Notes under the pieces: model-generated
What the model saw: the letters and a program-made list of their open reading frames with translations, nothing else
Databases searched by the model: none
What the model was told of the DNA's origin: nothing
Program-made: the position numbers and the translations under genes
Origin: Azolla caroliniana
Taxonomy: Eukaryota > Plantae > Polypodiophyta
DNA length: 64,000 nt
Direction of reading: 5' to 3'
NCBI GenBank assembly: GCA_043228905.1
Contig: JBHGNT010000004.1
Coordinates: 9,734,001 to 9,798,000, forward strand
In this document: positions 2,895-56,074 of the stretch, piece by piece
How the letters are laid out: each line of letters begins with the position of its first letter
Numbering within the stretch: the first letter of the stretch is position 1

Positions 2895-3904
2895 TGTCGT
2901 GAAGATCCGTCACTACGCGCAGATCGTGAGGCGGAACCGCCGGGGTTCTAGACCAGAAGGATTTAGAGTCGATACAAGCTTTGGCGAGAAAGTACTTAAG
3001 ATAGATTGGGAAAGAGAGAAGATGAGATTACACGATTGATTTGATAACGAATTTCTTCTTCTTAATTTTCATAAAAGAAACCGTGTTTTTCTCCTCCCCC
3101 TTCCCTCTTTTATAGATGCTCTCATGCATATGATGCATGTGAGGGTACAAGACATGCATAAATTGCATGTTTGCCATTTGGCGCTTAAGTATTACATGTG
3201 GTGCATGCTAACCATGTCACTCATTTTAGCACTCATGGATGAGAATTTATATGTAAAAGTACAATGATAGAAATATAATTTTCAACTAAATAGCATGTCT
3301 TAATGGTAAGCCAATTGACTCCTAACTTGGAGGTGCAAGGTTCAAATCCATACTTGCCCTCCTTGTATATGTAAATATGTATATATATTTATATATTTAT
3401 TTTATCTAGTCGCCGGACGCCGGTTCGCTGGATACCGTCACCGGATACCGGTGCCTCGCCGGATGCCGACGCCGGATGCCGGTGCCGCCGCCGGATTGCG
3501 GTCGGATCACCGGCTCCATCGCTGGTCCGGTTTTGGTTGGCCAAAACCCTTTTCGAGTAGCTAGCTACCTCCACTCTTAGTTCAAGTTACCTTGAACTCT
3601 CTATGCTCCACACATAGACACAAAGATAATATCTTTTGCTCCACCTTATATATGATGAGAGCCGTATTTGTCGTGCCTATGTGGGATATCTCACAATTTT
3701 CTCTTTTCTTTTTACAAACTTTATACCCTCATATCTTGACATTTAGTTATCCATTTCTCATGTAATAAAGTGCATTCGAAACCTCCATCATTTTGTACTT
3801 AGATATTAAAAATGTTATCTTCACAATTATTGTATTACGTGATTCATACTCGATTTCGTACATTTTATGGGATTTTCACACTATTGCCGAAAATCTTCAC
3901 GACA
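2895..3904 (-). repeat. LTR type B (3' LTR of Gypsy element 1)
   Basis: Termini TGTCGTGAAG...CTTCACGACA, adjacent to the PPT at 3905; homologous to the LTRs at 40356 and 47363. Confidence 0.9.
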
Positions 3905-3976
3905 TCCACCCCCACCAAACCGCACGTCCTCCGGTACGTGCCAAGAAGAGAAGAAGTGAGATTTCGGCTACGATGA

Positions 3977-6900
3977 TCAATTAGATTCCTCCATGTCTTC
4001 ATTTTCATCCGGCCTATTATGTTCATCGTCGAGGTAATCGAGGTCAGGATCCTTGTCTTGTCTTTTCTTGAAAAGCTTTACTCTTTTTCCCGCAATGGGT
4101 ACGGCCAACCTTGATCCGTCTAGTTCCGCAAGGTGGTATGTGGCATTATCGTTGGCACTTGTCACCACATATGGCCCGAACCATCTTCTTGCGAACTTCC
4201 TTGTTGTACTATGTTCTTCAATCTTCTTGGGACGAAGTCGATGCGTGTTGTCGAGCCGAACTTTGTTCTTTACTCGGGCTGCCTTCATCATCTTTCGCGC
4301 TTTTTCTAAATCTTCAGGTCTTCTTTCAAGTTGCCTTATCCGCGCCGCTAATAACTCTTCTCGGCTCATCTCGTTCTCCCACGGTATCGCTACCCATGAG
4401 GCGATTGTCCTTTCGATGGGCATAATCGGCTTTTGTCCATACATAAGCTCCGTCGGCATATACCCTGTCACTGAGCTATGTGTCGTTCTATCGGCCCACA
4501 GGGTAATAGTCGTGGCCAATTCCCGACTCGACCGTTGCATGCCCGTACGATGGCTTTAACGATAGGTCCATGCCCTCGCTCGATCTTCCCATTTGCTTCC
4601 GGATTGTAGGCAGTCGTGAGGGAGAGCTTCACGCCTAGTCTTTCGAAGAGCTCCGTCGCTTCGTGCGCGTCCAACTCCCCTCGGTCGGCCACTATCTTCC
4701 CTACACATCCATATCGGCAAACAACATCTTCAAGTAAAAATTTGCAAACGGCTGAAGTCGTCTTATTTGTCAAGGCTCGTCCTTCCACTTGATTTGTCAA
4801 GTCTTCCCTTGCGAGCGCTAAGTACTTCATTTGTCCCACTCCCATTGGCATCGAGACCAGATCCACCATCCATTTGAAGTGAATGGTGAGTGGGTATGTC
4901 GGCTTTAACTCATCACGATGACGTATATTTGAATATATTTGGCAAGTTTCACATGTGGACACGAAATGGAGTACATCTTTGTACATGCTTGGCCACCAGT
5001 ACTTCTCCTTCAATTTTTCGAACATCGCCCATGTTCCTCTATGACCTGCCCAAGCACTCTCGTGGAATTTGGTCATCAGCGTCTCTTGCTCTTCTTTCTT
5101 TACCACCACTCGACGTGGTATTCCTGTCCTTCTTTTTGGATGTCGCTAAAGGAATCCTCCCTTCAAGAAGTATCGATAAGCTTTCTTTCGGATTCGTAGG
5201 GCCTCCTCCTTTGTCAACGAAGCATCTGTCGTCAATGTTCTTAGGAATCTACCGATGAGTAACCACTCTCCTTCGTACTCGTTCTCGTTGAAGGCGTGGA
5301 GGGTTTGCGTGTCCTGGTCTTCCGCCGACAATCGAGCCATCTTGAAGAAGTCGAGGGCGACATCTTCATCTTCCGAAACCATGTTACTTCCATTTGAAAA
5401 TCTTGCCCTCGACAGCATGTCAGCCATGGCGTTCTTCTTCCCTGCGATGTGACGGATCTCTGGGTTTAAAGACTTGATGTAGGCGATCAACCTTAGCATA
5501 GCAAGATCTGGGGTCGCACATCCCGAGACCATTCCGAGAATTGGGAGACAATCTGTCTCTATTATCACTTCTGACCCGATCAGGTAATCTTTGTCCGTCT
5601 TCACTGCCGACACAATACCCCAAAGTTCCTGCTTGACTTGGGCATATCTTTGTTGCCGTTCGCTGAGAACCTTTGCTCCGAACCGGATGGCATATCGCGC
5701 ATTATCTTCACCTTCTTGATTGATGAACCACCGATTCCGGTTGGGCTCGTATCTACGGTCACGTAAATTGGTTTCCCTTTGGCATAATCGGCCTTCCTTA
5801 GTGCCGGAGCTTCAAGAAGCAGTTTCTTTAATCTTCGCATCGCCTCTGTGTGCTCGTCTCGCCATTCGAACTTTATTCTTTTCTTTCGTAGTCCATATAA
5901 CGGTTCGGCGACATGAGCGTAGTGAGGAATCCATATATGATAAAATGCGCACGCTCCAAGGAACCTTCGAACCTCCGTTTGGTTTTCGCATTCTTCTTTC
6001 ATGTCTTCGATTGCGTTCACTTTGGATGGCGAGGGCTTCCGGCCGTATGCTCCACACAAGTGACCTACCACCAAGATCTCTGGTTGCCCGAATGCGGATT
6101 TTTCTCCCGAAAATGTCAAATTCGCATCTTCGAGCCTTTGAAGCACCTTCTCGCAATCTTTCATATGATCCGCAACGAACTTTCTACAACCTTCCTTATC
6201 TTTCGATTCATCTTTCTCCTCATCCGAACATCCTTTTATCGGAATATCATCCAAGAATGGCATCGTGATGTCCGGAATGCAATCCTTCAAGACTTTATTC
6301 ATGGCATTCACCATATGAGCCACCGAGTTCGTTGCGCCTTGGGGTAAGGTACACATCCGCACAAGCCCGATCGGAGTCCTCATGGTTGTAATGTCCCGAC
6401 TGTCGATCGCCAATTGGAATTGGTCATATCCGGAGTAGAGATCACCAATGGAGTAGATGGACCGGCCCGCAAACGCTTCGGCAAATTCGTCCACGCTCGG
6501 ACCGATTCCGGCATTTCGAATTGTCACCTTGTTGACGGGTTGAAGATCTTGGATGAATCGCAATGATCCATTCTTCTTCGGCACCGTGAACCACCTATTG
6601 GAATAAGGAGCATTCGACGGTTCTAGAATTCCCATACTCACCTTCTCCTTTAAGAGCTCGATCAGCTTCGGAAGGTGTGCTCTCGGAACCGGTATCGGTT
6701 TCAAATTCCAAGGCACATGAGGCACCGTGAAGATCACCATTGGCTCTATAACCTTTGGGTCGGCGCATCCGATTTCTTGTGGGAAGAATGCGAAAGCCTT
6801 CCCATGTCTCTCAAGCATATCGTGAAACATTCGCTCCTCTTCAGGGAGAAGGAAATCCTCCTTTCCAACTCGTAGCTTCCCCTTCGTCTCTTTGGTGAAG

Positions 6901-7421
6901 TCATGACCTATCTTCTTCGGATCTCTTAAGCTTGGATCATTAGCGACTTCCTTCATCTTTTGCCAGCTATCTTCCGGTAGCGGAACCGCAACTGGCTTGA
7001 TCTTCTTATCCACCATTTTATATTTCGTGTTGATGTCAGCATCCTTCATCGAGATGCCACGACGGTATTCATCGATGATAGCGTACATGTTGACGGAGTT
7101 AACCGAAATCACGCATTGGTTGTGAAGATAGCTCAAGTCCACGACGTCCTCGATTTCACCGATGGTGTCGTTAAATGAGGCTTCTTCCATAATATGAGTC
7201 ACGAACTCCCCTTCTTCTATTATGTTCTCTTCTTTCAGCATCTTCTCGAATTCTTGTATCCGGTGCTTGTGCTTCTTGTCGGGTAGTACTAGTTTACATG
7301 CGCCACTAGGTGTGACACATGTTGCTTCTCCTTGCAATCCACGCGCTCTTCTTTCTTGTGGGGTCTTGTGATTGCTCGGACTATTTGTGCCCCATGCTTC
7401 AATAGTCCGCTCTAAAAATCC
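3977..7421 (-). pseudogene. pol: pol (RT-RNaseH-integrase), frameshifted
   Basis: RT motifs DLYSGYDQF, LPQGATNS, FLDDIPIK; RNase H VDTSPTGIG, IETDCLP; integrase zinc finger HESAWAGH...CETC, core VDLV/VADRGE/GKIER, GPY motif. Confidence 0.92.
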
Positions 7422-9607
7422 GAGGATTCGCCTCCGAGACTATCTCGATTCCTTTCATGATTGGCTCACACTGTTAGGAATTGGACCGATCTTTGGTTGT
7501 CAAGACTCTTTATTCGTGCGAAGGCTGCTCCATTATCGAACACTTTGGTCTCCATCCGAGATGATGTGATATAAGGTTGCCCTAGGATGACAGGATGCAA
7601 CGCCGATTCTTGTACGAAGAAGTGTTGATCCATCTCCACATCCCCGATCGTGACTTTGACATTGGGACAAGCTCCGTACAAGTCCTCTGTAGACTTTGTT
7701 GCCGCATGAATCTTCCATCCGTGGTTTGTATTGATTGGCCATCTTCCCTTTTTGTAGAAGTCGGTTGACATGAGGTTGATCTCCGAGCCGTGGTCGATCA
7801 AGGCTACGACGGTCTCTTTCTTCTCCCCGATCTTTACCGGCGTCTCCATTGTCGCTCGTGCCCAATGAGGTCGAGTGTAGTGGCTGTCCACCATATCTTC
7901 ATCGATTTCGTCTCTTGCCATTGTTATGGCATTCGTTTTTGCTTTCTGCGGTTTCTCTTCTTCCTCGTCCGATTGTTGTCTCTTTCTCTTTACAAGGTTC
8001 ACGATCGTGTCATGGAACTCCTTCTTCGTAATGCCAAGCAATTCCCTCAAGGACAAAGTTACGTGGCTATCAAGAACTCGTTCTTCGAGAATCTTCTTTA
8101 GGTCCGTCATCTGCTCTATGTCCGACCTTAGCTTATAGGTAGGTATGGTCCTTGTCCTCCGAGCGGGGTCTTCGACACCAACCTTCACGGGCCGAACCGT
8201 TTCTTCAACTCATATGCTCGGCTCCCCTTTTCGGCTTGATTCTCGTTCCTCCGTTTGTAAAGGTCGACTCGTCTCCGCATCGTCCTTCTTTTCCGCGTTC
8301 CTTGTTTCATGTGTTTTTGATGGGCCTTGCTCTTCTATTCTCTTTCTCTTTTCTTCGACGAACACCTCGTGGTTGTCGCACATCACCTCTGCGAGTATGG
8401 TGTTGTCGTCCACCGGATCCGACCACCTGGTTATGGTTTGCACGTTTCGGTCCGCAAGCTCTACCTCGTTCGATGTGACTTTTCCCTTCTTCTCATATTC
8501 GAGAACGGAAGTCCAAAACTTTGCTCCCGCTCTAGCAGCTTCAGTCTTGTCTTTCCCGACTCTTATTCCGGCCGACGCAACATAGTGCATCGCATCCACA
8601 TGAGTCGCATCGGCATCCTCCATAGATTTCTTCATTCCTCCTCTTCCGAAATTCACCCGTAGGGGTCTTCTAGTCTCGCTTGAGCAGATCATGTTGTCCT
8701 CTATGTATACGATATTTTGTCGAATCGCCTCTCGAAGGCTCGCACAATCCCTTCTCATGTGGTCCATGCTATCGCACCACACGCATCTAAAGGGTTCTTT
8801 TCCTTTAGGGCTCCGACGATTCATGTTGGCTACCGTGACCTTCTCGAACTTCTTCGCTAGCTCTTCAATGATGTCATCATCAATCTTCTTTTCTTCCACG
8901 TTACTTTGTCTCAGCGGCTTAGCTACTTTCGGCGGTCTTGCTTTCTCCGTGGTAGTCGGTCCCGTCAAGTCGGTGTCATCAACCCATTGGCGACGCTTGT
9001 CGAGCCTATTGCATGCCCGCTTCACCGCGATCCAGTCCGCTACGAGCCCATTTGCTTAGGTATCATCTTCGAGAAGAGTCCCCAACTCCCGTCTATCCTT
9101 TATGTCCACGGCCTTCAAGAAGTACAAAGTCTTGTCCTCTTCCTATTCTTGGTCCGTATTGGGGAGACGACTAAACATCTGGTCGAATTCGTCGTACACC
9201 CTCAAGACGCTCATCTTCTTATTCTTCTTCTCTATCCACTTCATCAGGGCATGTCGAGTCATCCTCGTTGAGTCTTCAGTCACGAACTCCGCTAGTATCG
9301 TTTTCTCGAACTCGGACCATGTTGTCTTACCTTCTTGAAGCTCGATGACGCGTCTTTGGATGTTGTTGGCGACAACTCTCTTGAAGCTTGCGATTTGACG
9401 TGCCTCGGACACGTCCCTTTGATTCATCTCCCTCTTATATGCATCAAGGAACTTCGTAACGTTCCTTCCATCGAATTGGCCCTCGAGCTCTACGACACGA
9501 TCGACAGCCTTCTCCACGCTCGCGTCGTTGTCCCGAGATCTCATCATTTGCTCGACGATTAGCATCATCCTTTCGAGCTCTCCCGCTTGGTTGCTTGAGG
9601 ACGCCAT
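7412..9607 (-). pseudogene. gag: gag-protease ORF with in-frame stops
   Basis: Zinc knuckle CVWCDSMDHMRRDC; aspartic protease ALIDHGSEIN...VILGQPY. The Gag and PR segments share one frame. Confidence 0.88.
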
Positions 9608-9648
9608 CTCCAAGTATTAATCTCGACTTGATCCTTCCTACCGCCTCG

Positions 9649-9666
9649 TTCACATCGGGTTCACCA
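9649..9666 (-). other. Primer binding site, tRNA-Trp
   Basis: Plus strand TTCACATCGGGTTCACCA matches the recalled plant tRNA-Trp 3' end (TTCACGTCGGGTTCACCA) with one mismatch. Confidence 0.8.
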
Positions 9667-9677
9667 CTTAAAAAAAA

Positions 9678-10341
9678 TGTCGCGAAGATGCGCGTGCGAG
9701 CGTGCTTCGCTTGAGCGGGACCACCGGGGTCTTGGACCAAGGAGGATGTCCGTCAAGGTATTGAGAAGAGGGCGATTGAAGGTGAATGTAAGATTGGAGG
9801 AAGACCTATTACACTTCAGAAGATTGAAGATTGTACACTTTCAAAAGTAGATAAATAATTACAAGATAGATGCGAAGAAGAAGAAATAGAAGCTTATATT
9901 ATTGATGGTGATGATGATGGTCATATCATATTGAGCCCCCCCCTTACACAAGCCGTACTAGGGGTTTTATAGGTTTGTCCATGCACAAAACCATGGGCTT
10001 GGAGCCATGGTTTCTATGCACACAGTTTTGAGACATGCAGGAAACCATGGGCTTAAAACCGTGGTTTTGTGTACACGGTTTTGTTCGTTTGTTTCCTACG
10101 GAATACTGAATATGAGAAAGAAATATAGAACATCTAAAGCACTTAGTAGTAGCTTTAGTGGTAAGGTAATTGCCTCTTATCTTAGAGGTGCAAGGTTCAA
10201 ATCCTACTTGCAACCCTCTACATGCACTCAATGCCATTGTGACCTAGGTTTATTTATTTTCATTTTTACAAGTATTCGTGAAATGTGTGTGGATCCTCAA
10301 TTTTTGATTTTTTCTCGCACTAGACATGCCACATCACGACA
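9678..10341 (-). repeat. LTR type A serving as the 5' LTR of Gypsy element 1
   Basis: Reverse complement of 2226-2884 with a few substitutions and one small indel. Confidence 0.9.
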
Positions 10342-13562: not shown

Positions 13563-13622
13563 GGGAGAGAGACACACACACAACACAGAGATACAACGAG
13601 AGAGAGAGAGAGAGAGAGAGAG
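13563..13622. repeat. (GA)n/(CA)n microsatellite upstream of the MYB pseudogene
   Basis: Visible dinucleotide runs. Confidence 0.8.
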
Positions 13623-13689
13623 ATTAGTGTTGAAGAGGGACAGTAACAGAATTCTTTCTCAAGGAAGGGTCGGCCGTTGAGGCATGCCA

Positions 13690-15474: not shown

Positions 15475-16225
15475 GTATTTACATTTATCTCAACATTTGT
15501 TTTGACTGTACACGGAAAGTTAATTAGCTTAGTTAGCAGAAAAGCTAATTAGCTTATCAGTTACATTTACCTCAGTTAGCTACTAGGATAGCTACTACAT
15601 AGGTAACTGGCTACTCTCAATAGATACTACCATGATAGCTAATTAGCAAACTCAATAGCTAATTTAGTTACTACCAGATAATTAGCTACCAAAATAGCTA
15701 ACTAGCTACCATGATAGCTAATTAGCTATTCTCAATAGCTAATTTAGTTATTACCAGATAATTAGCTACCAGAATAGCTAATTAACTTTTAGGATAGCTA
15801 ATTAGCTATTAGAATAGGGTTTTAGCTACCATGATAGCTAAATAGCTACTCGAATAGCTAATTAGAATAGCTAATTAACTAATTAGCTATTAGAATAGGT
15901 AATTAGCTACCATGATAGCTAATTGGCAACTATGATAGTTAGCTACTCTAGTTATTACCAGCTAATTAGCTACTAGGAAAGCTAATTAGCTACCATGATA
16001 GCTAATTAGGTACTAGGACAGCTAATTAGCTACCATGATAGCTAATTAGCTACTAGAACAACTAATTAGCTACTAGGACAACTAATTAGCTACTAGGATA
16101 GCTAATTTCGTTATTACCAGCTAATTAGCTACTAGGAAAGCTAATTAGCTACCACGATAGCTAATTAGCCACCATGATAGCTACTAGGACAGCTAATTAG
16201 CCACCACGATAGCTAATTAGCTACC

Positions 16226-16405
16226 TTGTTCGTCCAACACTGTTTTAAGTTACATTGGCAGTGGTTATTAGCTCAACGTTTGGAGCTTACTCAACATTGG
16301 GTCTGGTCTGACGGAGTTGCGTCATAATTCAAGGCTCGACGTCCATTTTATTTTGTGGGGAGGTATCCTACTATAACAGGTTTGGAGATGAGATGAGATG
16401 TGGGA
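16226..16405 (+). pseudogene. Transposase catalytic-core fragment (Sola2-like DDD), not in the ORF track
   Basis: Hand translation: LFVQHCFKLHWQWLLAQRLELTQHWVWSDGVAS*FKARRPFYFVGRYPTITGLEMR*. This fits the WSDGxxxQFK motif; the stops are single CAA>TAA and TGG>TGA transitions. Confidence 0.7.
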
Positions 16406-16493
16406 AGGATAGCTAATTAACTACTTTACACAACTATGGTAGTAGCTCATTAGCTAGTAGGATAGCTAATTAGCTAGTAGCTAATTAGTTGCC

Positions 16494-16668
16494 AATGCCA
16501 TGAAATAGTGGAAACAGCATGTAAAACTGAGGTTCACAACAACAATGTTTTTGAACACTTGATGTAGCATACTGCCATAATGTTGCATCAAGTGCTGCAT
16601 CAAGTGTTCAAAAACACTGTTGTTGTGAACCTCAGTTTTACATGTTGTTTCCACTATTTCATAGCATT
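16494..16668. repeat. Foldback hairpin with ~75 bp arms (MITE-like)
   Basis: AATGCCATGAAATAGTGGAAACAGCATGTAAAACTGAGG... pairs with ...CCTCAGTTTTACATGTTGTTTCCACTATTTCATAGCATT. Confidence 0.85.
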
Positions 16669-18299
16669 TCAAATCGTTGCCTAATTCAGTACACTATTCC
16701 AAAAGAATAGGGTGGAGCTGATCTGAAGGAGATGTGATAGCAGAACTCTTACTTTCAGCCACGTTGGCAGCTATCTCCTCATCTGTTGCAGCGTCATCAA
16801 CACCAGACACATCATGTGCCGTCCTTAATCCACAAAATTCTACAATAACAAGGCAGCTATTTAGGATAGCTAATTAGCTACTTTACTAAACTATGGTAGT
16901 AGCTACGATAGCTAATTAGCTAGTACGATAGCTAATTAAGATAGCTAATTAGCTAGTACGATAGCTAATTAGCTACTTTCCTCAACTATGGTAGTAGGTA
17001 GGATAGCTAATTAGCTACTATGGTAGCTAATTAGCTACTTTACTCAACTATGGTAGTAGCTAGGATAGCTAATTAGCTACTTTACTAACTATGGTAGTAG
17101 CTAGGATAGCTAATTAGCTACTTTACTCAACTATGGTAGTAACTAGCATAGCTAATTAGCTACTTTACTAACTATGGTAGTAGCTAGGATAGCTAATTAG
17201 CTACTTTACTAACTATGGTAGTAGCTAGGATAGCTAATTAGCTACTTTACTCAACTATGGTAGTAACTAGCATAGCTAATTAGCTACTTTACTAACTATG
17301 GTAGTAGCTAGGATAGCTCATTAGCTACTATGGTAGCTAATTAACTACTTTACTCAACTATGGTAGTAGCTAGGATAGCTAATTAGCTACTTTACTCAAC
17401 TATGGTAGTAGCTAGGTGTTATGTACACATAACGTTGGTGAGGGTAGGTCACTAATATTTACATTAGTGAAGGGTATGTTCACTATTATTAAAAAGGGGA
17501 CTAATGATTGGATAGAATGAATGATATGTGCATGCACTATCATGATTTAGACAACCAATGAATAGAGAGCCTTTTAGAAAGGCACATCTATTCAAGGGGC
17601 CTAGGAAAAGGTATAAATATGAGGCTTAGCTACCCTCATAGGGATCATCACGTCGGAAGGCTGCTGTCGTAGACACCGGTGGTGCGGGCTAGGCTTTCGT
17701 CTCGACAATCGTGTTTATCTCTTCCAAGGTATTAGTCATCCTAATATCCGGCGGTATGGGACGTCGGTGGTAGGTTGGCTATGTCTAGATCATAGCTCGG
17801 GGGTGGTCGGGTGGAATGGGTTCTTCTATCCAATCTATTTTCTTCCTTTTTACTTGATTTGGTCTATTGATTAGTAATAGACTCTTAACAGTGGTATCGG
17901 AGCTTTTACTAACAATTTTTTTGTTGTTTTGATGTTTTTTGCGTGTGAGCGAGGGGGATCTAACAAGGCTCGTCATGCTCTTCTCAGGATCAAAACAACA
18001 CTCTAAACCCGGTATTCTTCTTTTTTGATCTCTTCTCTTTTTCTATTATGCGTTCTTTATGGTCGAATCAAATTGGTATTACGTTTTATTCTCTTTCTTT
18101 CTACCTCCTACTACGCTACAATTTTACTTATTATTATGCATCGGGCCGAGCGTGTTTGCACTAATCGCACACGCTCAACTCATGGCCTTTTGCATATTGC
18201 GATATATATCCCACTCTCTCCTCTCTTGAACTCTTACGATAATAATTATTCTTGTGCATTGGGTCGAGCGTGTTTGCTCTAATCGCACACGCTTATCTC

Positions 18300-18660
18300 A
18301 TGGCCGTTTTGCATATGATGTTGAGTATACCACTCTTCCCCTCTATTGAGCCATCACTTGGCCGATTCTAAGGGATGATGTGGCCTTGACGAGGTGTATG
18401 TTGCGTACCTATGCCACTCTACTCTCTATTAAGCCATCAATTGGCCGATTCTATGGGATGTTGTGGCCTTGACAAGGTATATGTAGCTTACATATGCCAC
18501 TTTCCTTTTTAATTAGCCATCAATTGGCCGATTCTAAGGGATGATGTGGCCTTGACGAGGTATATGTCACTTACCTATGCCACTTTCCTCTTTAATTAGC
18601 CATTACTTGGCCGATTCTAGGGATATGTGGTGGTCTTGAGGAGGTGCATGTCAACTACCC
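18300..18660 (+). repeat. ~88-bp tandem repeat (about 4 copies) in the chromovirus 5' leader
   Basis: Recurrent TTGGCCGATTCTAAGGGATGATGTGGCCTTGACGAGG. Confidence 0.8.
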
Positions 18661-24049: not shown

Positions 24050-24530
24050 GGGAGTATGTTATGTACACATAACGTTGGTGAGGGTAGGTCACTAATATTT
24101 ACATTAGTGAAGGGTATGTTCACTATTATTAAAAAGGGGACTAATGATTGGATAGAATGAATGATATGTGCATGCACTATCATGATTTAGACAACCAATG
24201 AATAGAGAGCCTTTTAGAAAGGCACATCTATTCAAGGGGCCTAGGAAAAGGTATAAATATGAGGCTTAGCTACCCTCATAGGGATCATCACGTCGGAAGG
24301 CTGCTGTCGTAGACACCGGTGGTGCGGGCTAGGCTTTCGTCTCAACGATCGTGTTTATCTCTTCCAAGGTATTAGTCATCCTAATATCCGGCGGTATGGG
24401 ACGTCGGTGGTAGGTTGGCTATGTCTAGATCATAGCTCGGGGGTGGTCGGGTGGAACGGGTTCTTCTATCCAATCTATTTTCTTCCTTTTTACTTGATTT
24501 GGTCTATTGATTAGTAATAGACTCTTAACA

Positions 24531-25290: not shown

Positions 25291-25301
25291 GACTAAGCTT
25301 A

Positions 25302-26650: not shown

Positions 26651-26659
26651 CTGAAATAT

Positions 26660-27417: not shown

Positions 27418-27429
27418 CTATTTATTATA

Positions 27430-40355: not shown

Positions 40356-43300
40356 TGTCGTAAAGATCCGTCACTACGCGCAGATCATGAGGCGGAACTG
40401 TTGTGGTTCTGGACCGGAAGGATTCGACGTTAGTATAAGCTTTAGCAAGAAAGGAATTAAGATAGATTGAAAGAGAGAGAGATTGAGAAAAGATAGAACA
40501 CTTGATTTTAGATTGAGAGAGAGATTAAGAACTCTTGACTTTAGATTTCAGAAACAAGTTACACGATCAATTCGATAACGAATTTTCTTCTTCTTAATTT
40601 CATAACCAAAAGAGCCTAACCCTCTTTTATAGATGCTCTTTTATAGATGCTCTTTTCATCCCCCTCTTTTATAGATGCTCTCATGCATATGATGCATGTG
40701 AGGGTACAAGACATGCATAAAATGCATGTTTTCCATTTGGCGCTCATGTATTACATGTGGTGCATAATAACCATATCACTCATTTTAGTTCTCATGTATA
40801 AGAATTTACATGTAAAAGTACAATAATAGAAATAAAAATTCAACTAAATGTTATGGCTTAGTGGTAAGCCTACTAACTCTTAACTAGGAGGTGCAAGGTT
40901 CGAATCCACACTTGCACTCCTTGTGTATACATATATTTATTTATTTATATATATATCTACCCGGTCACCGGATGACGCCGGTTCGCCGGATGCCGGTCGC
41001 CACCGATTACCGTTGATTGCTGGATGACGTCAGTTCCCCGGATGTCGCCGGTTACCGTCGGTTACCGGATTTCGGTTACGTCGCCGGATGCCAGATGCCG
41101 GTTACCGCTCGGTCACCGAGTCCCGATTACATTGCCGGTCCGGTTTTGGTTGGGCAAATCCTTTGCAAGTAGCTAGGCCACACCCATTCAGCCAATAGCT
41201 TAGTTCAAGTCACCTTGAACTCTATATGCTCCACACATAGACACAAAGATAATAGCTTTTGCTCTACCTTATATTTGGTGAGATCCTTATTTCCTGTCTA
41301 TGTGGGATATCTCACAGTTTTATTTTTCTCTTCTTCCTTCTTATACTTCACTCCCACATAACTTGTCACTTAGATGTCCGTTTCTTATGTAGTAAAGTGC
41401 ATCTCTTCAAGATCTTCGTCTTTTGTACTAAGATATTAAACTTACTTAGAATCAGTATATTCACTATTATTGTTTTATATGATTGACACTTGATTTCGTA
41501 TGTCTTATGTAATTTTCACACCATTGCCGAAAATCTTCACGACATCCACCACCACCAAACCGCACGTCCTCCGGTACGTGCCAAGAAGAGAGAAAGTGAG
41601 ATTTTGGCTACGGTGATCAATAAGATTCCTCCATGTCTTCATTTACAACCGCCCTATTATGTTCATCGTCGAGGTGATCGAGGTCAGGATCTTCGTCTTG
41701 TCTTTTCTTGAAAATCTTTACTCTTTTTCCCGCAATGGGTACGATCAACCTTGATCTGTCTAGCTCTGCAAGGTGGTATGTGGCATTATCGTTGGCACTT
41801 GTCACCACATACGGCCTAAACCATCTTCTTGCGAACTTTCTTGTTGTACTGTGTTGATTGTCAAGGCTGTTGTCGTAAACCAAAACCTAATCTCCTTCTT
41901 CAATCTTCTTGGGACGAAGTCGATCCGTGTTGTCGAACCGAACTTTGTTTTTTACTCGGGTTGCCTCCATCATCTTTTGCGCTTTTTCTAGATCTTCAGG
42001 TCTTTTTTCAAGTTGCCTTATCAGCACCGCTAATAACTCTTCTCGGCTCATCTTGTTCTCCCACGGTATCGCTACCCATGAGGCAATCGTCCTTTCGATG
42101 GGCATTACCGGCTTTTGTCCATACATAAGCTCTGTCGGCATATACCCTATCACTGAGCTGTGTGTCGTTCTGTTGGCCCACAAGGCATAGGGTAATAGTC
42201 GTGGCCAATTCCCGACTCGATCATTGCATGCCCGTACGATGGCTTTGACGATAGGTCCATGTCCTCACTCGATCTTCCCATTCGCTTCCGGATTGTAGGC
42301 AGTCATGAGGGAGAGCTTCACGCCTAGTCGTTCGAAGAGCTCCGTCGCTTCGTGCTCATCCAACTCCCCTCGGTTAGCCACTATCTTCCCCACACATCTG
42401 TATCGGCAAAGAACCTCTTCAAGTAGAAATTTGCAAACGACTGAAGTCGTCCTATTTGTCAAGGCTCGTCCTTCCACTTGATTTGTCAAGTCTTCCCTTG
42501 CCAGCACTAAGTACTTCATTTGTCCCACTCCCATTGGTATCGAGACCAAATCCACCATCCATTTGAAGTGTATGGTGAGTGGGTATGCCGGTCGTAACTC
42601 ATCACGATGACGTATATTTGAATGTATTTGGCAAGTTTCGCATGTGGACACGAAATGGAGTACATCTTTGTACATGCTTGGCCACCAATACTTCTCCTTC
42701 AACTTTTCGAACGTCGCCCATGTTCCTCTATGACCTGCCCAAGTACTCTCGTGGAATTTGGTCATCAGCCTCTCTTGCTCTTCTTTCTTCACCACCACTC
42801 GACATGGTATTCTTGTCCTTCTTTTTGGATGTCGCTAAAGGAATCCTCCCTTCAAGAAGTACCGGTAAGATTTCTTCCAGATTCGTAGGACCTCCTCCTT
42901 TGTCAACGAAGCATCTGCCGTCAATGTTCTTAGGAATCTACCGATCAGTAACCACTCTCTTTCGTACTCGTTCTCGTTGAAGGCCCGGAGGGTTTGCGTG
43001 TCCTGGTCTTCCGCCGATAATCGAGCCATCTTGAAGAAGTCGAGGGCGACATCTTCATCTTCCGAAACCATGTCACTGCCATTTTCAAATCTTGCCCTCG
43101 ACAGCATGTCAGCCATGGCGTTCTTCTTCCCTACAATGTGACGGATCTCTAGGTTTAAAGACTTGATGTAGGTGATCCACCTTAGCATAACAAGATCTAG
43201 GGTCGCACATCCCGAGACCATTCCGAGAATTGGGAGACAATCTGTCTCTATTATCATTTCCGACCTGATCAGGTAATCTTTGTCCGTCTTCACTGCCGAC

Positions 43301-46300
43301 ACAATACCCTAAAGTTCCCGCTTGCCTTGGGCATATCTTTGTTACCGTTCGTTGAGAATCTTTGCTCCGAACCGGACGGCATATCGCGTATTATCTTCTC
43401 CTTCTTGATTGATGACCCACCTGATTCCGGTTGGGCTCGTATCGACGGTCATGTAAATCGGCTTCCCTTCAGCATAGTCGTCCTTCCTTAGTGCTAGAGC
43501 TTCGAGAAGTAGTTTCTTCAATCTTCGCATCACATTTGTGTGCTCGTCTCGCCATTCGAACTTCATTCTTTTCTTTAGTAGTCCATATAACGGTTCCGCG
43601 ACATGAGCGTAGTGCGGAATCCAAATATGATAAAATGTGCATGCTCCAAGGAACCTTCTAACCTCCGTTTGGTTTTCGCATTCTTCTTTCATGTCTTGGA
43701 ACGCGTTCACTTTGTATGGCGAAGGCTTCCGGCCGTATGCCCCACACAAGTGACCTACGACCAAGATCTCTGGTTGCCCGAATGCAGATTTTTCTCCCGA
43801 AAATGTCAAATTCGCATCTTCGAGCCTTTGAAGCACCTTCTCGCAATCTTTCATATGATCTGCAACGAACTTTCTACAACCTTCCTTATCTTTCAATTCA
43901 TCTTTCTCCTCATCCAAACATCCTTTTATCAGAATATCATCCAAGAATGGCATCGTGATGTCCGAGATGCAATCCTTCAAGACTTTATTCATGGCATTCA
44001 CCATATGAGCTACCGAGTTCGTTGCGCCTTGGGGTAAGGTACACATCCGCATAAGCCCGATAGGAGTCCTCATGGTTGTAATGTTCCGACTGTCGATCGC
44101 CAATTGGAATTGGCCATATCCGGAGTAGAGATCGCCAATGGAGTAGATGGACTGGCCTTCAAACGCTTCGGCAAATTCGTCCATGCTCGGACCAATTCCG
44201 GCATTTCGAATTGTCACCTTGTTGACGGGTTGAAGATCTTGGATGAATCGCAACGATCCATTCTTCTTCGGCACCGTGAACCACCTATTGGAATAAGGAG
44301 AATTCGACGGTTCTAGAATTCCCATACTCACCTTCTCCTTTAAGAGCTCGATTAGCTTCGGAAGGTGTGCTCTCGGAACCGGTATCGGTTTCAAATTCCA
44401 AGGCACATGAGGCACCGTGAAGATCACCATCAGCTCTATAACCTTTGGGTCGGCACATCCGATTTCTCGTGGGAAGAATGCGAAAGCCTTCCCATGTCCC
44501 TCAAGCATATCACGAAACATTCGCTCCTCTTCAAGGGGAAGGAAATTCTCCTTTCCAACTTGTAGCTTCCCCTTCGTCTCTTTGGTGAAGACATGACCTA
44601 CCCTCTTCGGATCTCTTAAGCTTGGATCGTTAGCGACTTCCTTCATCTTTTGCCAACTATCTTCTGGTAGCAAAACCACCACTGGATTGATCTTCTTATC
44701 CACCATTTTATATTTCGTGTTGATGTCAGCTTCCTTCATCGAGATGCCACGATGGTATTCATCGATGATAACATACATGTTGACAGAGTTAACTAAAATC
44801 ACGTAATCATCGTGAAGATAGCTCAAGTCCACGAGTTCCTCGATTTCACCGATGGTGTCGTTAAATGAGGCTTCTTCCATAATATGAGTCACAAAGTCTC
44901 CTTCTTCTATTATGTTTTCTTCATTCAGCATCTTCTCGAATTCTTGTATTCGACGCTTGTCCTTCTTGTCGGGTAGTACTAGTTTACATGCACCACTAGG
45001 TGTGACACATGTTGCTTCTCCTCGCAATCCATGCACTCTTCTTTCTTGTGGGGTCTTGTGATTTCTCGGACTATTTGTGCCCCATGCTTCAATAGTCCAC
45101 TCTAAAAATCCGAGGATTCGCCTCTGAGACTATCTCGATTCCTTTCATGATTGGCTCACACCGTTAGGAACTGGACCGATCTTTGGTTGTCAAGACTCTT
45201 TATTCGTGCGAAGGCTGCTCCATTATCGAACACTTTGGTCTCCATCCGAGATGATGTGATATACGGTTGTCCTAGGATGACAAGATGCGACGCCGATTCT
45301 TGCACGAAGAAGTGTTGATCCATCTCCACATCCCCAATCATGACTTTGACATTGGGACAAGCTCCGTACAAGTCCTCCGTAGACTTTGTTGCTGTGCGAA
45401 TCTTCCATCCGTGGTTTGTATTGATTGGCCATCTTCCTTTTTTGTAGAAGTCGGTTGACATGAGTTGATCTCTGAGCCGTGGTCGATCAAGGCTACCACA
45501 GTCTCTTTCTTCTCCCCGATCTTCACCGGCATCTCCATTGTCGTTGGTGCCCAATGAGGTCGAGTATAGTGGTTGTCCACCATATCTTCATCGACTTCGT
45601 CTCTTGCCATCGTTATGACATTCGTTTTTGCTTTTTGTGGCTTCTCTTCTTCCTCGTCTGATTGTTGTCTTTTTCTCTTTACAAAGTCCACAATAGTGTC
45701 ATGGAACTCCTTCGTAATGCCGAGTAATTCCCTCAAGGACAAAGTCACGTGGCTATCAAGAACTCGTTCTTCGAGAATTTTCTTTAGGTCCGTCGTCTGC
45801 TCTATGTCCGACTTTAGCTTATACGTAGGTATAGTCCTTGTCCTCTGAGCGGGGTCTTCGACACAACCTTCACGGGCCGAACCGTTTCTTCAACTTTTAT
45901 GCTCAGCTCCCCTTTCCGGCTTGATTCTCGTTCCTCCATTTGTAAAGGTCAACTCGTCTCCACATCGTCCTTCTTTTTCGCATTCCTCGTTTCATGTCTT
46001 TTTGATGGGCCTTGCTCTTCTATTCTTTTTCTCTTTTCTTTGACAAACACCTCGTGGTAGTCGCACATCACTTCCGGGAGTATGGTGTTGTCGTCCACCA
46101 GATCTGACCATCCAGTTATACTTTGTACACTTCGATCCGCAAGCTCTACTTCGCTCAAAGTGACTTTTCCCTTCTTCTCATATTCGAGAACGGAAGTCCA
46201 AAACTTTGCTCCCGCTCTAGCAACTTCAGTCTTGTCTTTCCCGACTCTTATTCCAGCCGACGCAGCATAGTGCATTGCATCCACATGAGTTTCATCGGCA

Positions 46301-48617
46301 TCCTCCATAGATTTCTTCATTCCTCCTCTTCTGAAATTCACCCGTAGGGGTCTTCTAGTCTCGCTCGAGCAGATCATGTTGTCATCTATGTACACGATAT
46401 TTTGTCAGATCGCCTCTCGAAGGCTCGCGCAATCCCTTCTCATGTGGTCCATGCTATCACACCACACGCATCTAAAGGGTTCTTTCCCTTTAGGGCCCCG
46501 ACAATTCATGTTGGCTAGCGTAACCATCTCAAACTTCTTCGCCGGTTCTTCGATGATGTTGTCATCAATCTTCTTTTCGTCCGGGCTACTTTGTTTGGGT
46601 AGCTCAGCTACTTTCGGTTGTCTAGTTTTCTCCGCAACAGTCGATCCCGCCAAGTCGGTGTCATCAACCCACTCACGACGCTTGTCGAGCCTATTGCATG
46701 CTCGCTTTACCGCAACCTAGTCCGCCACAAGCCCATTTGCTTGGGTATCCTCTTCGAGAAGAGTCCCCAATTCTCGTCTATCCTGCATGTCCACAACTTT
46801 CAAGAAGTACAAAGTCTTGTCTTCTTCAAGCAACACTTGGTCCGTGTTGGGGAGACGACGAAACATCTGGTCGAATTCGTCATACACCCTCGAGGCACTC
46901 ATCTTCTTATTCTTCTTCTCTATCCACTTCATCAGGGCATGTCGAGTCATCCTCGTTGAGTCTTCAATTGCGAGCTCCGCTAGTATCGTTTTCTCGAACT
47001 CGGACCATGTTGTCTTACCTTCTTGAAGTTCAATGACACGTCTTTGGACGTTGTTGGCGACACCTCTCTTGAAGCTTGCGATTTGACGTGCTTCGGACAC
47101 GTCCCTCTGATTCATCTCCCTTCTATATGTATAAAGGAACTTCGTAACGTTCCTTCCATCAAATTGACCCTCGTGCTCTACAACACGGTCGACGGCCTTC
47201 TCCATGTTCGCATCGTTGTCTCGAGATCTCATCATTTGTTTGACGATTACCATCATCCTTTCAAGCTTTCGCGCTTCGTTTCTTGGGGACGCCATCTCCA
47301 AGTATTAATCTCGGCTTGATCCTTCCTACCGTCTCTTTCACGTCAGGTTCACCACTTAATTATGTCGTGAAGATTCGTCACTACGCGCGGATCGTGAGGC
47401 AGAACCGACGGGGTTCTGGACCGGAAGGATTCGACGTTGGCACAAGCTTTAGCGAGAAAGGAATTAAGATAGATTGAAAGAGAGAGAGATTGAGAAAAGA
47501 TAGAACGCTTGATTTTAGATTGAGAGAGAGATTAAGAACTCTTGACTTTAGATTTCAGAAACAAGTTACACGATCAATTCGATAACGAATTTTCTTCTTC
47601 TTAATTTCATAACTAAAAGAGCCTAACCCTTCTTCTTTTTCATCCCCCTCTTTTATAGATGCTCTCATGCATATGATGCATGTGAGGGTACAAGACATGC
47701 ATAAAATGCATGTTTTCCATTTGGCGCTCATGTATTACATGTGGTGCATAATAACCATATCACTCATTTTAGCTCTCATGTATAAGAATTTACATGTAAA
47801 AAAGTACAATTATAGAAATAAAAATTCAACTAAATGTTATGGCTTAGTGGTAAGCCTACTAACTCTTAACTAGGAGGTGCAAGGTTTGAATCCACACTTG
47901 CACTCCTTGTGTATATATATATATGTATACATATATATATATATTTATTTATATATCTATCCGGTCGTCGGATGCCGGATGACGCCGGTTCGCCAGATGC
48001 CGGTTGCTGCCGATTATCGTCAATTGCCAGATGTCGTCGGTTACCGTCGGTTACCGGCATCCAGTTCTGTTACCATTCGTCCGGTTTTGGTTGGGCAAAA
48101 CCTTTGCAAGTAGCTAGGCCACACCCATTCATCCAATAGCTTAGTTCAAGTCACCTTGAACTCTCTATGCTCGACACATAGACACAAAGATAATAGCTTT
48201 TGCTCTACCTTATATATGGTGAGATCCTTATTTCCTGTCTATGTGGGATATCTCACAGTTTTATTTTTCTCTTCTTCCTTCTCATACTTCACTCCCACAT
48301 AACTTGTCACTTAGATGTCCGTTTCTTATGTAGTAAAGTGCATCTCTTCAAGATCTTCGTCTTTTGTACTAAGATATTAAACTTACTTAGAATTAGTATA
48401 TTCACTATTATTGTTTTATATGATTGACACTTGATTTCGTATGTCTTATGTAATTTTCACACCATTGCCGAAAATCTTCACGACATCCACCACCACCAAA
48501 CCGCACGTCCTCCGGTACGTGCCAAGAAGAGAGAAAGTGAGATTTGGGCTACGGTGATCAAGGTGATTTCGTACGTCTTATGTAATTTTCACACCATTGC
48601 TGAAAATCTTCACGACA
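40356..48617 (-). mobile_element. Gypsy element 2 (same family as element 1), type-B LTRs 40356-41544 and 47363-48485, nested in Copia
   Basis: Gag-PR-RT-RH-IN closely similar to 3977-9607; tRNA-Trp PBS 47337-47354; likely 4-bp TSD ATGT/ACGC (two C>T changes). Confidence 0.95.
40854..40907 (+). promoter_or_regulatory. tRNA-like Pol III internal promoter inside an LTR (antisense to the element)
   Basis: A box TGGCTTAGTGG (40854-40864) and B box GGTTCGAATCC (40897-40907) at tRNA spacing; Lys(CTT)-like loop CTCTTAA. Confidence 0.7.
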
Positions 48618-51600: not shown

Positions 51601-54207
51601 TCGGGTGAGCTGGGTTTGCGTCACCTCGACACGCCATACTTGATGGGGAGAAAGGAAGAACAGGAACAGGCACAAGAGCGTGGAAGGAGTAGAGGTGGTC
51701 ATTGCGGCGGAAGTGACCATGACGCGGAATCGGATAAAAAATTCGATTTCGGCCTAGCTGAAGAAGCCAAAGAAAAGAGCAAGGGCCATAACCGGAGGGA
51801 AGAGCCGAGGATAGCCAAATCAAGGGGAGATATAGCCAAGAAGGGCGTAAAGTCCAAGACCAAGACGTGGTCTGATGGAGTCGAAGGCCTAAAAACAAGA
51901 GACGAATTGGAGATAACCAATTCGGATGAGAGCAGAATTGAATCGGAAGTGTTTGATTCAATCGGAATGTTCCATTCGGATACGCCGAATCAACTGAAGG
52001 CCGTGCAAAAAAAGGGCAGCGAAGGGCGCACCGATACCGTGATAACAAGGGAGCTGAGAAGGGTCGGATGAGCAGACAAGCCGACCGGCAGGGTCAAAGT
52101 GTGCGGAATCGAATGGGTCGAGGAGCGTGAGCGAGGCGTGAAGCTAGAAGAAACCGGAGCGGTGATCCGGAAGTACCAAAAGCGCCTCATGTTGAGCTTG
52201 AGGGGGAGTGTTGAGATTTAAGCTCAACATTGGCCGGATTGGCTGCGCAAGCCGAGAACCAAATCAGTTGGGACTGATCGGTTAGGCCGGACCGGTGCGT
52301 AAACCGGTGCGCAAAAAAGAAGTCGTAGCGGTGCGTAAACCGCGAGGCCGTTGGAAATATATTCCACGTAGGAATATATTTTGGGAGATAGTGTAGAGCT
52401 CATTTATGAGCATTGACGTACGTGTCAGTTATTCTATCAGTCTGTATGGACTTGTATAAAAGTGCTCACTGAGCACATTCTATGTATATACTGAGTATTA
52501 TTTTTTGAATAGAGTAGTGTGTATTCTCTCTCTCTCAGTCTTTCTCTCCCGCATACTGTGTTTGTCCAAGCTCTCCTTTAAACCTGTGTTTTCCTACATT
52601 CTGCCTTCTATTGCTTCCGCACGTTGTTTTTCTACAAAGGCATTACAAAACATGTTACAACCTATTCGGTTCAAGTTGTGGCGGAAGGGAGAAATGATGG
52701 GAGTTACATGGATTTCATGGGACCATTGGGATACTCCTAAAAGGTTAGGTGGTGCAACAATATTGGATTTGGAAAGGCATTTGATGGCTTGTAGATTTGT
52801 ATTATTACAAGATATATGTCAACAAGATCAAGCATAAATATCTATGATGCAATATTTTATTGAGCATGAAGGATTGGTGCATGGGAAAACAAAGATTCAA
52901 GCGTCATGGTGGTCACTACGTAATGGCAGTATTCCTCTAAAGATTCGTCATTCTGTATGTGGTCAACATTTGGTACAATCGTGGCAAGATGATTGAGAAT
53001 ATTGTAATTCATTACAAAATGAATTGCTTGTTTCTTCTCTAGCGTTGTTTTGCCATGGGAAAGAGAAGTTGAGATCTCAATTCAATCATTTAGTTCGATT
53101 GGGGATTGTACATTTGGAAGATGTGGTTGATAATGAATCTCAAAGGTTGTTAGATTTTGAAGATGCCAAGAGATGGTTATGTATTCACCCAAATTATGGA
53201 TTTATTAGGGAGAAATTACAAGAGATACCATTGTTGCAAGGATCTTTGCCATTGAAAACAAAATTTGCACCTTGGGTCGATTGGCGGTTACAAGATGGTG
53301 CACACTTGTTACAGGTCACTAGAAATATATTGTATCATCATGCCATGGCATTATTATCTTGGCTATCTCCTGAAGCAACGAAGTTGTGGAATGTATATAA
53401 GTCAGAGGCAAGGTGGTGGAAAATATTACGTGGTTGGCATTCCCATCTACCATTTCGTGCAACAGTATTCATATGGAGAGTCATGATTGGTGGGCTCCCA
53501 TTAGGTTCAGCCTTAAAGAGACGAGGACTAGGGTCTAGCACTTGTTTCTTTTGCATTGTTCCATTGGAGGATAGTACACATAGGTTCATTAAATGTCCTA
53601 TAACGTGTACCATTTGGAAGTTCTTATCCGCCATTTGGCAAGTTTTAGCCCGTTGTTGTTTGAGACCTCAACGATGGGTTTTTTCTCAATATGCTCAAAA
53701 TGGATCAAATGATGAGATTGAGATATTGTTCTAATTTTTACGTTATTGGGGTCTACAACACAATTGGAATATGCATAATGCTTTCATGTTTGATAATAGA
53801 CACAGGGTGGAAGCCTATATAAAGAAGTTGAAAGGTATATTATCATGTGGATTTTTTGGATGTTAGTGCATGGGGGGATCATTTCCTCAAATGCTTATTC
53901 AAGTTTTTTAATAGCATTACACAACGTTCCTCTCCCTACATAGGCATATGATAGGTAGAGGAGACTAAGAAATGTTGTAACTAAGTGGATTTTACATAAA
54001 CTTAATATAATTATGTGCTTTTACCCAAAAAGAAGAAGAGAAACAAACAAACAAAGCTATATTAACGTCTTCGAAGGCCAAAATTGGCCCATGAGACAGT
54101 TGGTTTACAACAAAATGGGTATTTATCCAATTATCAAAACTAAAATAAAATAAAGTGAAAATAGAACTTAAGCTAAAAGAGTTCTAGTTACAAAACGTGG
54201 TATACGC

Positions 54208-56074
54208 TGTCGTGACGTGGCTCGTCCAAAAGCGTAGCATTGTGTAGACAAAAGATATCGTGAAGGTGAGGAAGGAATCACTAGGATTATGGACGGAAGG
54301 GATGAAAGAGTAGAGGTAGAGTAAATAGAGATCAACAAGATATGACAAGATAGGATATAGAATGATATTTGACAGAATAAAAGAAATTTATAATTATTTC
54401 GTGAAAGAGTTACAAAATGGTTACGAGCGTCGTTGAACCTTCGATCTTTGTTTCATAAGGTAATCGCTCTTCTCTTTCTTGATAGTAAGCCACATCAATC
54501 TTCACTTCAATATTTCGATGAAGATAAGAATCAAGATAAGAATCTAACCGCCGCCCTTTCGTTGTGAGTTGAGCACCACAAAAATCAAGCTAGCTCTTCT
54601 CTTGTCATTTCTTCTTCTGTTGCTCTTTCTATCTTATGATATCTCTTATGTAATATAACTCTATTTGATTCTCTTGATATATCATCCAATATAGTTCTTC
54701 GAGTTCAATTCCTTCGATATCCCTTGTGGCCCTACTCCCTTCTCCTTTTATAGGGAAGAGATGGTTGTACATGTGGGCCATGTGGCGCACATGCAGAGAG
54801 AACTTTGCATGTGTGCTATATGGTGCACATGTAGTACATTCCATGGTTTAAACCATACAATACTACTTCAAATAAAACAACACATATATTTTATATGCAT
54901 TACAAGTAAATGCTAAATGGTAAGGTTTAAATGTCATATTAAGGTTGGGGTTGTTGGTTCAAGTCCTCTTTTGCCCATGCAATATGCTATATGGTGTGCA
55001 TGTAGTATATTACATGGTTTAGACTATAAAATAGTACTTCAAATAAAACAATGCATATAATGTAAATTATCAGTATATGCTAAATGGTAAGGTTTGAGTG
55101 TCATAAGGTGGGGTTATTGGCTCAATTCTTCTCTCGTCCATGTAACATAACATATACATTATTTTATTTGCCTCTACATATAATGTTTAATATTATCATA
55201 GTGTGTTCTTAATATTATCTTTATGTATAAAATATTATCAATATTTATTTTATTTTAGTTACGTATTTATCTTATTGTAGACTTTTAATGTGAAGCTTTT
55301 GTACTTCACGACATCCACCCCCTCTAGACCTGCACATCCTCTGGCATGTGCCACTATCTTTCATCTTCATCTTGATCTATTGGAGGTTCACGCTCGAACC
55401 TTTTCTTAAATACTTTTATCCTTTTTCCAGCTACCACGTTTAGGATTGGTGTCTCATCCAATTCACTAAGCTTAGAAGTAAAGTTATCATATACTTTTCT
55501 TACTAACTTTCAACGAACTTGCAGACGGTCTTATGTTGATTATCTAAACTGCTATCATACACAAGCACCCAATCCCCTTGTTCTATCTTTTTATGTCTAA
55601 TTCTATGAGTTTTATCAAAACGAATTTTATTCTTCAGTCGGGCCTCCTTCAATCATTGGGCTGCAAATTCTATATCTCCAGATCGACACTCTAATTGTTG
55701 AATTTGCAAAGCAAACAATTCTTCTTTACTCACCTCTTCTCTCCATGGAATAGATATCCCTAATATAATTGATTCTTCTACCGGCATGATGGGTTTTGGC
55801 CAAGTATCAATTCAACTGGCATAAATCCTATTACTGAACTATGCGTTGTTCGATCGGGCAATAGTGCGTAAGGTAGCATGCATGGCCAATCTCTTATTTT
55901 AGTTTTGTAGCTTTTCACAATTGCCTTAACTATTGGGATATGTCCTCTTTCAATCTTTCCATTGGCTTCTAGATTATACCTAGTTGTAATTGATAACTTG
56001 ACCCCTGTCCAATTGAAGAATTCTTGAGCTTCATGAGAATCAAATTCTCCTCTATCTGCAATTATTTTACCAAC
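54208..56074 (-). mobile_element. Third Gypsy (related family): 3' LTR type C 54208-55313 plus decayed integrase
   Basis: Termini TGTCGTGA...TTCACGACA, PPT TCCACCCCC; the integrase remnant is colinear with 3977-4720. Cut by a Copia LTR. Confidence 0.85.

Follow-up and report, generated by a model that had tools for sequence, protein, structure and literature searches.

In a 64,000-nucleotide window of plant DNA (Azolla caroliniana contig JBHGNT010000004.1, positions 9,734,001 to 9,798,000), the long terminal repeats (LTRs) of one gypsy retrotransposon lineage carry tRNA-gene-type pairs of A and B boxes, here called modules, close to a predicted RNA polymerase II (Pol II) promoter. We propose, with a probability of about 0.4, that the modules of these Phygy-type LTRs are putative DNA docking sites for TFIIIC that would keep this promoter open. 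The window holds three LTR types, LTR-A, LTR-B, and LTR-C, which belong to a single lineage and are alike in their termini and polypurine tract (PPT) regions. The lineage would have captured tRNA-gene-type boxes several times, TFIIIC would dock on them at the DNA level in either orientation, and the promoter, at a distance of about one nucleosome, would thereby stay open in silenced chromatin. Such elements land in CG sites, frequently within other transposons, where an open patch beside the promoter would presumably be useful. As a booster the module would be optional, since many families and one relative of LTR-B do without it.

Box pairs were sought with at most one mismatch to what we take to be the A- and B-box consensus, at an A-to-B spacing of 42–46 nt. 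Seven pairs were found in the window; 100 dinucleotide shuffles gave 0.03 on average and never more than 1. Six of them are LTR copies already listed in an earlier, sequence-only reading of the window, including the one at 40854 with its perfect B box (Table 1), and the seventh, at 33839, lies in a foldback element described below. A further pair that the same reading had placed in LTR-C is present at 55077–55129, in a 172-nt duplication and better preserved in relatives, but with three mismatches it is at chance level when taken alone. The claimed tRNA-like spacing also holds: it is 43–45 nt in the six strong copies and 43 nt in an intact tRNA-Pro gene of the related locus L006. All seven listed copies lie in the U3 part of the LTR and are antisense to their own element. 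The statement that modules are always antisense is nevertheless too broad, as LTR-B and LTR-C also hold sense copies, decayed and on the downstream side of the TATA box, and six families of relatives have sense modules in U3.

Table 1. Modules, LTRs, and element parts in the window (coordinates on the forward strand; modules are located by their A- and B-box span)
Feature	Positions	Strand	Remarks
LTR-A, 3' LTR of E0	2226..2884	+	E0 of non-autonomous type with gag-like internal part; lineage PPT precedes LTR
Class-1 module	2363..2417	-	antisense; A box 178 bp upstream of predicted TATA (2596); one B-box mismatch
LTR-B, 3' LTR of gypsy element E1	2895..3904	-	tail-to-tail junction with LTR-A
Class-1 module	3296..3349	+	antisense; 181 bp upstream of predicted TATA (3114)
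E1 internal region	3905..9677	-	Trp primer-binding site 9666-9649, gag, DUF4100, reverse transcriptase, RNase H, integrase without chromodomain, PPT
LTR-A, 5' LTR of E1	9678..10341	-	99.4% identity to 2226-2884
Class-1 module	10150..10204	+	antisense; A and B boxes both at consensus
LTR-B, 3' LTR of E2	40356..41544	-	
Decayed sense A/B-type module, LTR-B	40529..40581	-	downstream of TATA; E=1.9e-5
Class-1 module	40854..40907	+	antisense; perfect A and B boxes; 180 bp upstream of predicted TATA (40673)
LTR-B, 5' LTR of E2	47363..48485	-	Trp primer-binding site next to it, 47354-47337
Decayed sense module, LTR-B	47536..47588	-	downstream of TATA
Class-1 module	47840..47893	+	antisense; C of B-box CpG mutated to T
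LTR-C, 3' LTR of truncated element of same lineage	54208..55313	-	outer flank NCGN
Decayed sense module, LTR-C	54513..54601	-	downstream of TATA; E=6.7e-15; intact in L017, L064, L071
Class-3 module	54911..54966	+	antisense; ~156 bp upstream of predicted TATA (54752); inter-box part unrelated to class 1
Second class-3 module, decayed	55077..55129	+	from tandem duplication

The modules have the box spacing of tRNA genes yet are not tRNA genes. ARAGORN found no tRNA at any module and returned only noise at a lowered threshold, and Rfam gave no tRNA match at E values up to 5–10. The lysine anticodon suggested by the sequence-only reading does not survive comparison of copies: CTCTTAA occurs only in the two LTRs of the element at 40–48 kb (E2), CTCCTAA stands at 3296, and CTCTTAT is found in LTR-A, and we rejected an origin from tRNA-Lys because the would-be anticodon loop varies in this way. 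An origin from the primer tRNA-Trp was likewise rejected, with matches at only 5–6 of 15 bases to the tRNA end read from the primer-binding site (PBS). We infer an origin from tRNA genes or from tRNA-derived short interspersed nuclear elements (SINEs).

The claim that one cassette is retained in all three LTR types is not supported for LTR-C. As claimed, the module is the main stretch common to LTR-A and LTR-B, being their sole shared BLAST block (58–59 nt, 76–86% identity). LTR-C, in contrast, shares no block with LTR-A and only a 34-nt CATG-rich block with LTR-B; its module gave no BLAST match to either, and the inter-box identity to the A and B modules (0.33–0.46) is at shuffle level (95th percentile 0.46). 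The LTR-C module is not detectably related to class 1. Inter-box identity distinguishes at least five kinds of module in the LTRs, with between-kind identities mostly at shuffle level: class 1 in the kin of LTR-A and LTR-B and in family F42, class 3 in the kin of LTR-C, two sense kinds in U3 (one in F15, F22, F31, and F44 together with F28, the other in F9), and, in the kin of LTR-C, a further sense kind that lies downstream of TATA. The kin of LTR-B (L001, L059, L038, L058, L077) have in addition a second class-1-related copy, which is in sense and sits some 75 bp downstream of the TATA box; its homologue at 40529–40581 in the window is less well kept. In families with such a second, downstream module the predicted Pol II promoter lies between two outward-facing modules.

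The class-1 module of LTR-A and LTR-B appears to be inherited rather than separately inserted, as two mosaic families link the two types. Between module and TATA box, F13 has a spacer of A type (z=63) and F4 one of B type (z=42), whereas the two share distal sequence; both switch LTR type at the module. Moreover, all 32 matches to a class-1 profile lie in LTRs of this lineage, and no free copy of the module was found in the 271 kb that were searched, where these elements are over-represented. These results argue against a separate SINE insertion in each of the two LTR types. Modules as a whole were likely captured several times; in a tree of integrase ends, the module-bearing coding families do not form one clade (26 rows; 20 rows, approximately unbiased test p=3e-5).

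To sample the lineage independently of the boxes, metagenome contigs were searched for the PPT/LTR junction, which gave 119 loci, 80 of them with long flanks. With five junctions from the window the set came to 126, and removal of eight bacterial-looking loci and of 16 junctions with less than 150 nt of LTR left 102 LTR starts in 43 families, of which 41 were long enough to be testable. All plant-like loci but two (L037 and L078, both without a module) belong to one accession series, so that one host group rather than land plants is sampled. Viral contigs gave neither a pattern match nor an integrase relative, and a single 18-residue bacterial match in genome contigs was dropped. A strict box pair (at most two mismatches) is present in 14 of the 41 families where 0.17 are expected, antisense in eight and sense in six, and a profile search adds two antisense families (F12, F40), so that 16 families (10 antisense, 6 sense) have a U3 module. 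It is thus not lineage-wide, as had been supposed. Box-profile scores are bimodal and the negative families show no faint remnants, though seven of them offered just 305–408 nt to scan. Modules occur in pol-coding and in non-coding families alike. Two further observations concern families without a module. The LTRs of F1, F6, F7, and F21 (e.g., L007) have a conserved U5 motif about 50 nt before the LTR end that reads as a canonical lone B box, altered in the kin of LTR-A and LTR-B and likewise in the module-less F8 and F18. In L006 (positions 284–1700), an F1 LTR adjoins tRNA-Pro genes arrayed in tandem, some intact and some decayed (three by ARAGORN).

We consider the evidence for selection on the boxes to be moderate. 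Five groups of 4–12 sequences, picked by PPT and LTR start, together provided 55 canonical box sites, 161 inter-box sites, and 759 other sites. As the sequence-only reading had anticipated, box bases are better conserved than their flanks: the pooled difference per pair is 0.096 at box sites, compared with 0.298 at other sites (p=9e-8) and 0.236 between the boxes (p=3e-4), although non-independence of sites and sequences means that these pooled p-values are overstated. Canonical box bases are, in other words, about threefold less variable than neighboring DNA; by group, the 11 canonical box sites differ by 0.045, 0.141, 0.073, 0.045, and 0.173, and other sites by 0.24–0.35. Geometry is kept as well. 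The distance from the GG of the A box to the GTTC of the B box is 36–37 nt in 13 of 13 modules examined, despite the chance-level identity between kinds. From the A box to the TATA box it is 178–205 bp in 12 of the 13 class-1 copies with a TATA call, 155–157 bp in the kin of LTR-C, 161 bp in F42, and 149–215 bp in the sense families with a clear call. The spacers of LTR-A (178 bp) and LTR-B (180–182 bp) have the same length yet do not align (z=0.8).

A DNA site for TFIIIC is suggested by what all kinds, whichever way they face, have in common: the boxes, the box spacing, and a position near the TATA box. Because both orientations occur, such a site suits better than an RNA product. Among the roles considered in the sequence-only reading, the mix of orientations would favor a DNA-level one (insulation or opening) over antisense RNA or replication. 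It is unlikely that RNA polymerase III (Pol III) transcribes the 7–8 kb element, since coding elements must, as argued in PMC10886601, use Pol II, and since the modules in the window point away from the element. TFIIIC is described as able to bind A and B boxes in chromatin and to relieve nucleosome repression, tRNA genes (tDNAs) as barriers in yeast and animals, and methylation as impairing TFIIIC binding (PMC11346459, PMC9540200). A more ambitious version of the proposal is less likely than not: the elements would be self-insulating retrotransposons, inserters into the CG sites of silenced DNA that repeatedly and independently captured boxes about one nucleosome upstream of their Pol II promoter as portable TFIIIC barriers, which in some families would stand on both sides of the promoter and point outward. 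If true, this would amount to tDNA-type insulation in plants, and to coding LTR elements co-opting Pol III factors for defense rather than for transcription or targeting.

A number of points weigh against docking by TFIIIC, in addition to the non-independence noted above. Most families (25 of 41) have no U3 module, among them F1, the family with the most loci (20), and in L047, a relative of LTR-B (contig coverage 143), a deletion of about 140 nt removed the whole module with both boxes. Taken by group, boxes differ significantly from inter-box sequence in only two cases (p=0.005 and 0.013) and not in three (p=0.33, 0.13, and 0.09); in the kin of LTR-B the boxes are not better kept (0.141 versus 0.189, p=0.33). 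Contigs of three DNA runs, in which LTR-B is a very large family (read depth along the LTR was not taken as copy number), do speak for better-kept boxes: among high-copy LTR-B variants, a frequency of ≥8% is reached at a single one of the 22 box sites, by a change that the consensus allows, but at 7 of the 32 between the boxes and at 17 of the 85 upstream. This contrast, however, reaches only p=0.06–0.08 (Fisher), and differences in the B box, 18–28 nt from the end of the stretch, were possibly under-reported. Module-bearing families were initially recognized through their boxes, and the TATA boxes are motif calls. Several copies are decaying, namely the sense copies in LTR-B and LTR-C, the copy at 55077, and, through changes in the B box, those at 2363 and 47840. 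The internal tree need not be the history of the LTRs, given LTR swapping in E1, L059, and L067. Finally, no such role for a plant tDNA was found in the passages of the tDNA-barrier literature consulted. Sister families and the one natural deletion, both lacking the module, are ready controls, which makes it testable whether boxes of tRNA genes can serve plants as chromatin barriers and whether transposons carry protection against silencing in cis.

The alternative that survives best, though we regard it as unlikely, is that the modules are functionless passengers: relics of pseudogenes or of tRNA-derived SINE heads that landed in a small number of ancestral LTRs, which would also act as islands of homology for recombination between LTR halves. 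A patchy distribution in either orientation, several origins, many decayed copies, and the clean loss in L047 are what such relics would leave, and the AT-rich tail that follows the LTR-B module and the change of type at the module in the F4 and F13 mosaics fit them too. The tRNA-like pair in the unrelated foldback element (33839, 34274) indicates that debris of this sort is present in the genome. Passengers would not, however, be expected to keep canonical box bases about threefold less variable than their surroundings, nor box spacing and TATA distance. The lack of free class-1 copies in the scanned sample also speaks against them, as does the finding that at most 1% of DNA-run contigs continue into unlike sequence.

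Somewhat less likely still is an active Pol III gene whose short RNA, antisense to U3 in LTR-A, LTR-B, and LTR-C, regulates the element, for instance by supplying small-RNA silencing or drawing it away. Transcription would need both boxes, and both are kept; the DNA upstream is 68–92% AT in 17 of 18 modules, and the 3' part of the module forms a predicted hairpin (z −2.5 to −3.5 in LTR-B copies; 87% of cells paired). In contrast, no terminator is conserved, the first T4 falling anywhere from 4 to 236 nt past the B box, and the plant CAA upstream motif (PMC3082873) occurs in just 6 of 18 modules. A conserved RNA structure is unsupported, as the alignment fold is weak (−1.98 kcal/mol) and covariation does not exceed that of slid controls; LTR-C copies fold no better than shuffles, and a guessed middle helix of the module, poorly paired, was discarded. 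Sense modules would, moreover, yield a different RNA.

It is improbable that the module, lying antisense in the 3' U3 of genomic RNA, base-pairs with the primer tRNA at its D and T loops, thereby aiding minus-strand transfer. A tRNA-like stretch at the U3-R of HIV-1 has reportedly been proposed for a similar role, as has a second primer site in Ty3, and the antisense U3 arrangement does hold in 10 families, including all three types in the window. Nevertheless, the 3' arm of the module matches the primer tRNA end at just 5–6 of 15 bases, the sense modules of six families cannot pair, and F1 and F8 have the same Trp PBS and no module. Least probable of all is that the module acts as a decoy, or as a landing pad, for Pol III-targeting elements; elements that target tRNA genes are described as requiring intact B boxes (PMC5006619), but in none of 35 aligned module copies are the 25 nt upstream of the A box interrupted by an insertion.

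The window itself is transposon-dense, with nested Copia and gypsy elements plus satellites. The reverse transcriptase (RT) of the lineage has named homologues in two liverworts, Riccia and Calypogeia, and in the fern Adiantum, which points to a seed-free plant as the likely host. E1 and E2 are 7.4–8.1 kb long with pol, and the LTRs are 0.66–1.2 kb with a predicted TATA box. The reading frames of E1 are broken; its domain order, RT–RNase H–integrase, is of gypsy type, and the integrase tail gave no Pfam match at E<0.1, so that a chromodomain was not found. E2 (40356–48485, minus strand, 8.1 kb) is nested in a Copia element, and its two LTR-B copies are 96% identical. The PBS of E1 and E2, which we take to be that for tRNA-Trp, also follows nine LTR ends; Rfam gave a weak match to the RSV PBS in L046 (E=3.9). 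Elements insert at CG sites, often within other transposons: among the 17 non-PBS flanks of LTR ends, seven are NCGN and five its deaminated form (12/17), while of the remaining five, two are the E0/E1 junction and one is a degenerate PBS. The outer flank of the E1 5' LTR-A, GCGT (NCGN), lies within a Copia RT, and the two flanks of E2 differ at two of four bases.

E1 is of mixed type, its 5' LTR being LTR-A and its 3' LTR being LTR-B; the LTR-A copies at 2226–2884 and 9678–10341 are mutually inverted. On either side, the 10-nt E0/E1 junction (2885–2894) starts with the bases that normally separate that LTR from its PBS. The layout would be accounted for if cDNA ends had been joined and an inversion between the two PBS leaders had come after. 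L067 (1–530) and L059 (4750–5002) also combine 5' and 3' LTRs from different families, through either real LTR swapping or assembly chimeras. Upstream of the E2 5' LTR, positions 48486–48617 hold the remnant of a tandem element: a PPT with some 70 bp of internal end, together with 54 bp from the start of a further LTR-B. Beside the LTR-B module, a CpG-rich CCGG repeat tract (40960–41140; L047 LTR 400–850) varies in length between about 60 and 450 bp across LTR-B copies, the module-less L047 having the longest; CpG counts along the LTRs were uninformative. The AT-rich foldback element (32969–34994) has long inverted arms and 51-bp palindromic repeats and holds two copies of another tRNA-like A/B-box pair (33839–33893, 34274–34328), unrelated to the LTR modules between the boxes. 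Elsewhere, at 15600–25300, a palindromic 20-bp satellite has received a chromodomain-bearing gypsy element, whose LTRs (from 17417 and from 24057) are 99% identical, and an element at 56952–60830 has three LTR copies with 100% identity over 519–640 nt and a pyrimidine-rich, apparently non-coding interior, and is either very recent or an assembly duplication.

By Trp PBS, NCGN target, size, and lack of a detected chromodomain, the elements fit the non-chromovirus Ty3/gypsy lineage Phygy, described from Physcomitrella with a Trp PBS, a 4-bp NCGN target, and a length of 7.7–10 kb (Neumann 2019, PMC6317226); as in Phygy, the coding region fills the internal part. Pol III boxes go unmentioned there, "polymerase III" having no match in the main text of that paper, and a literature search among freely accessible papers, Repbase entries aside, gave no report of A/B boxes in the LTRs of Phygy or other coding plant gypsy elements. 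Pol III boxes have been described from the LTRs of tiny non-coding elements, whose RNA they are presumed to drive; those described here sit in full-size coding elements, unlikely Pol III templates, and, if selected, would have some other role.

The nearest described system is Helenus, a group of TRIMs (terminal-repeat retrotransposons in miniature; TRIMp3) of 311–1263 bp, non-coding, for which transcription of the element by Pol III was proposed (Kojima 2024, PMC10886601). Like the modules, Helenus has a tRNA-like stretch in both LTRs that is conserved around the A and B boxes, does not function as a tRNA, is unrelated to the primer tRNA, and is proposed to have multiple origins (PMC10886601). 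The elements described here differ in size, reaching 8 kb with gag-pol and 0.66–1.2 kb LTRs with a predicted TATA box; even the shortest complete module-bearing unit (L046) is about 3 kb. They differ too in orientation, as the consensus LTRs in the Helenus supplement, including that of its single plant family (Selaginella, 120-bp LTR, 5-bp target-site duplication), have sense boxes, whereas U3 modules here are mostly antisense, with sense copies present in relatives and, in decayed form, at positions downstream of the TATA box. According to the same paper, many other Repbase LTRs hold tRNA-like pieces, its analysis being confined to TRIMs below 1 kb (PMC10886601).

The 5S analogue is Cassandra, a TRIM in which a Pol III internal promoter was likewise captured as a module of a plant LTR and of which module-less relatives exist; its promoter, however, is 5S-derived (A, IE, and C boxes), and the element is non-autonomous and drives its own transcript (PMC10853983, PMC10886601). 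The tDNA/TFIIIC barriers of yeast and animals are host loci, whereas the modules here are mobile parts of LTRs known from sequence, but in both cases A and B boxes are proposed to act as DNA sites that open chromatin or block silencing (PMC11346459, PMC9540200).

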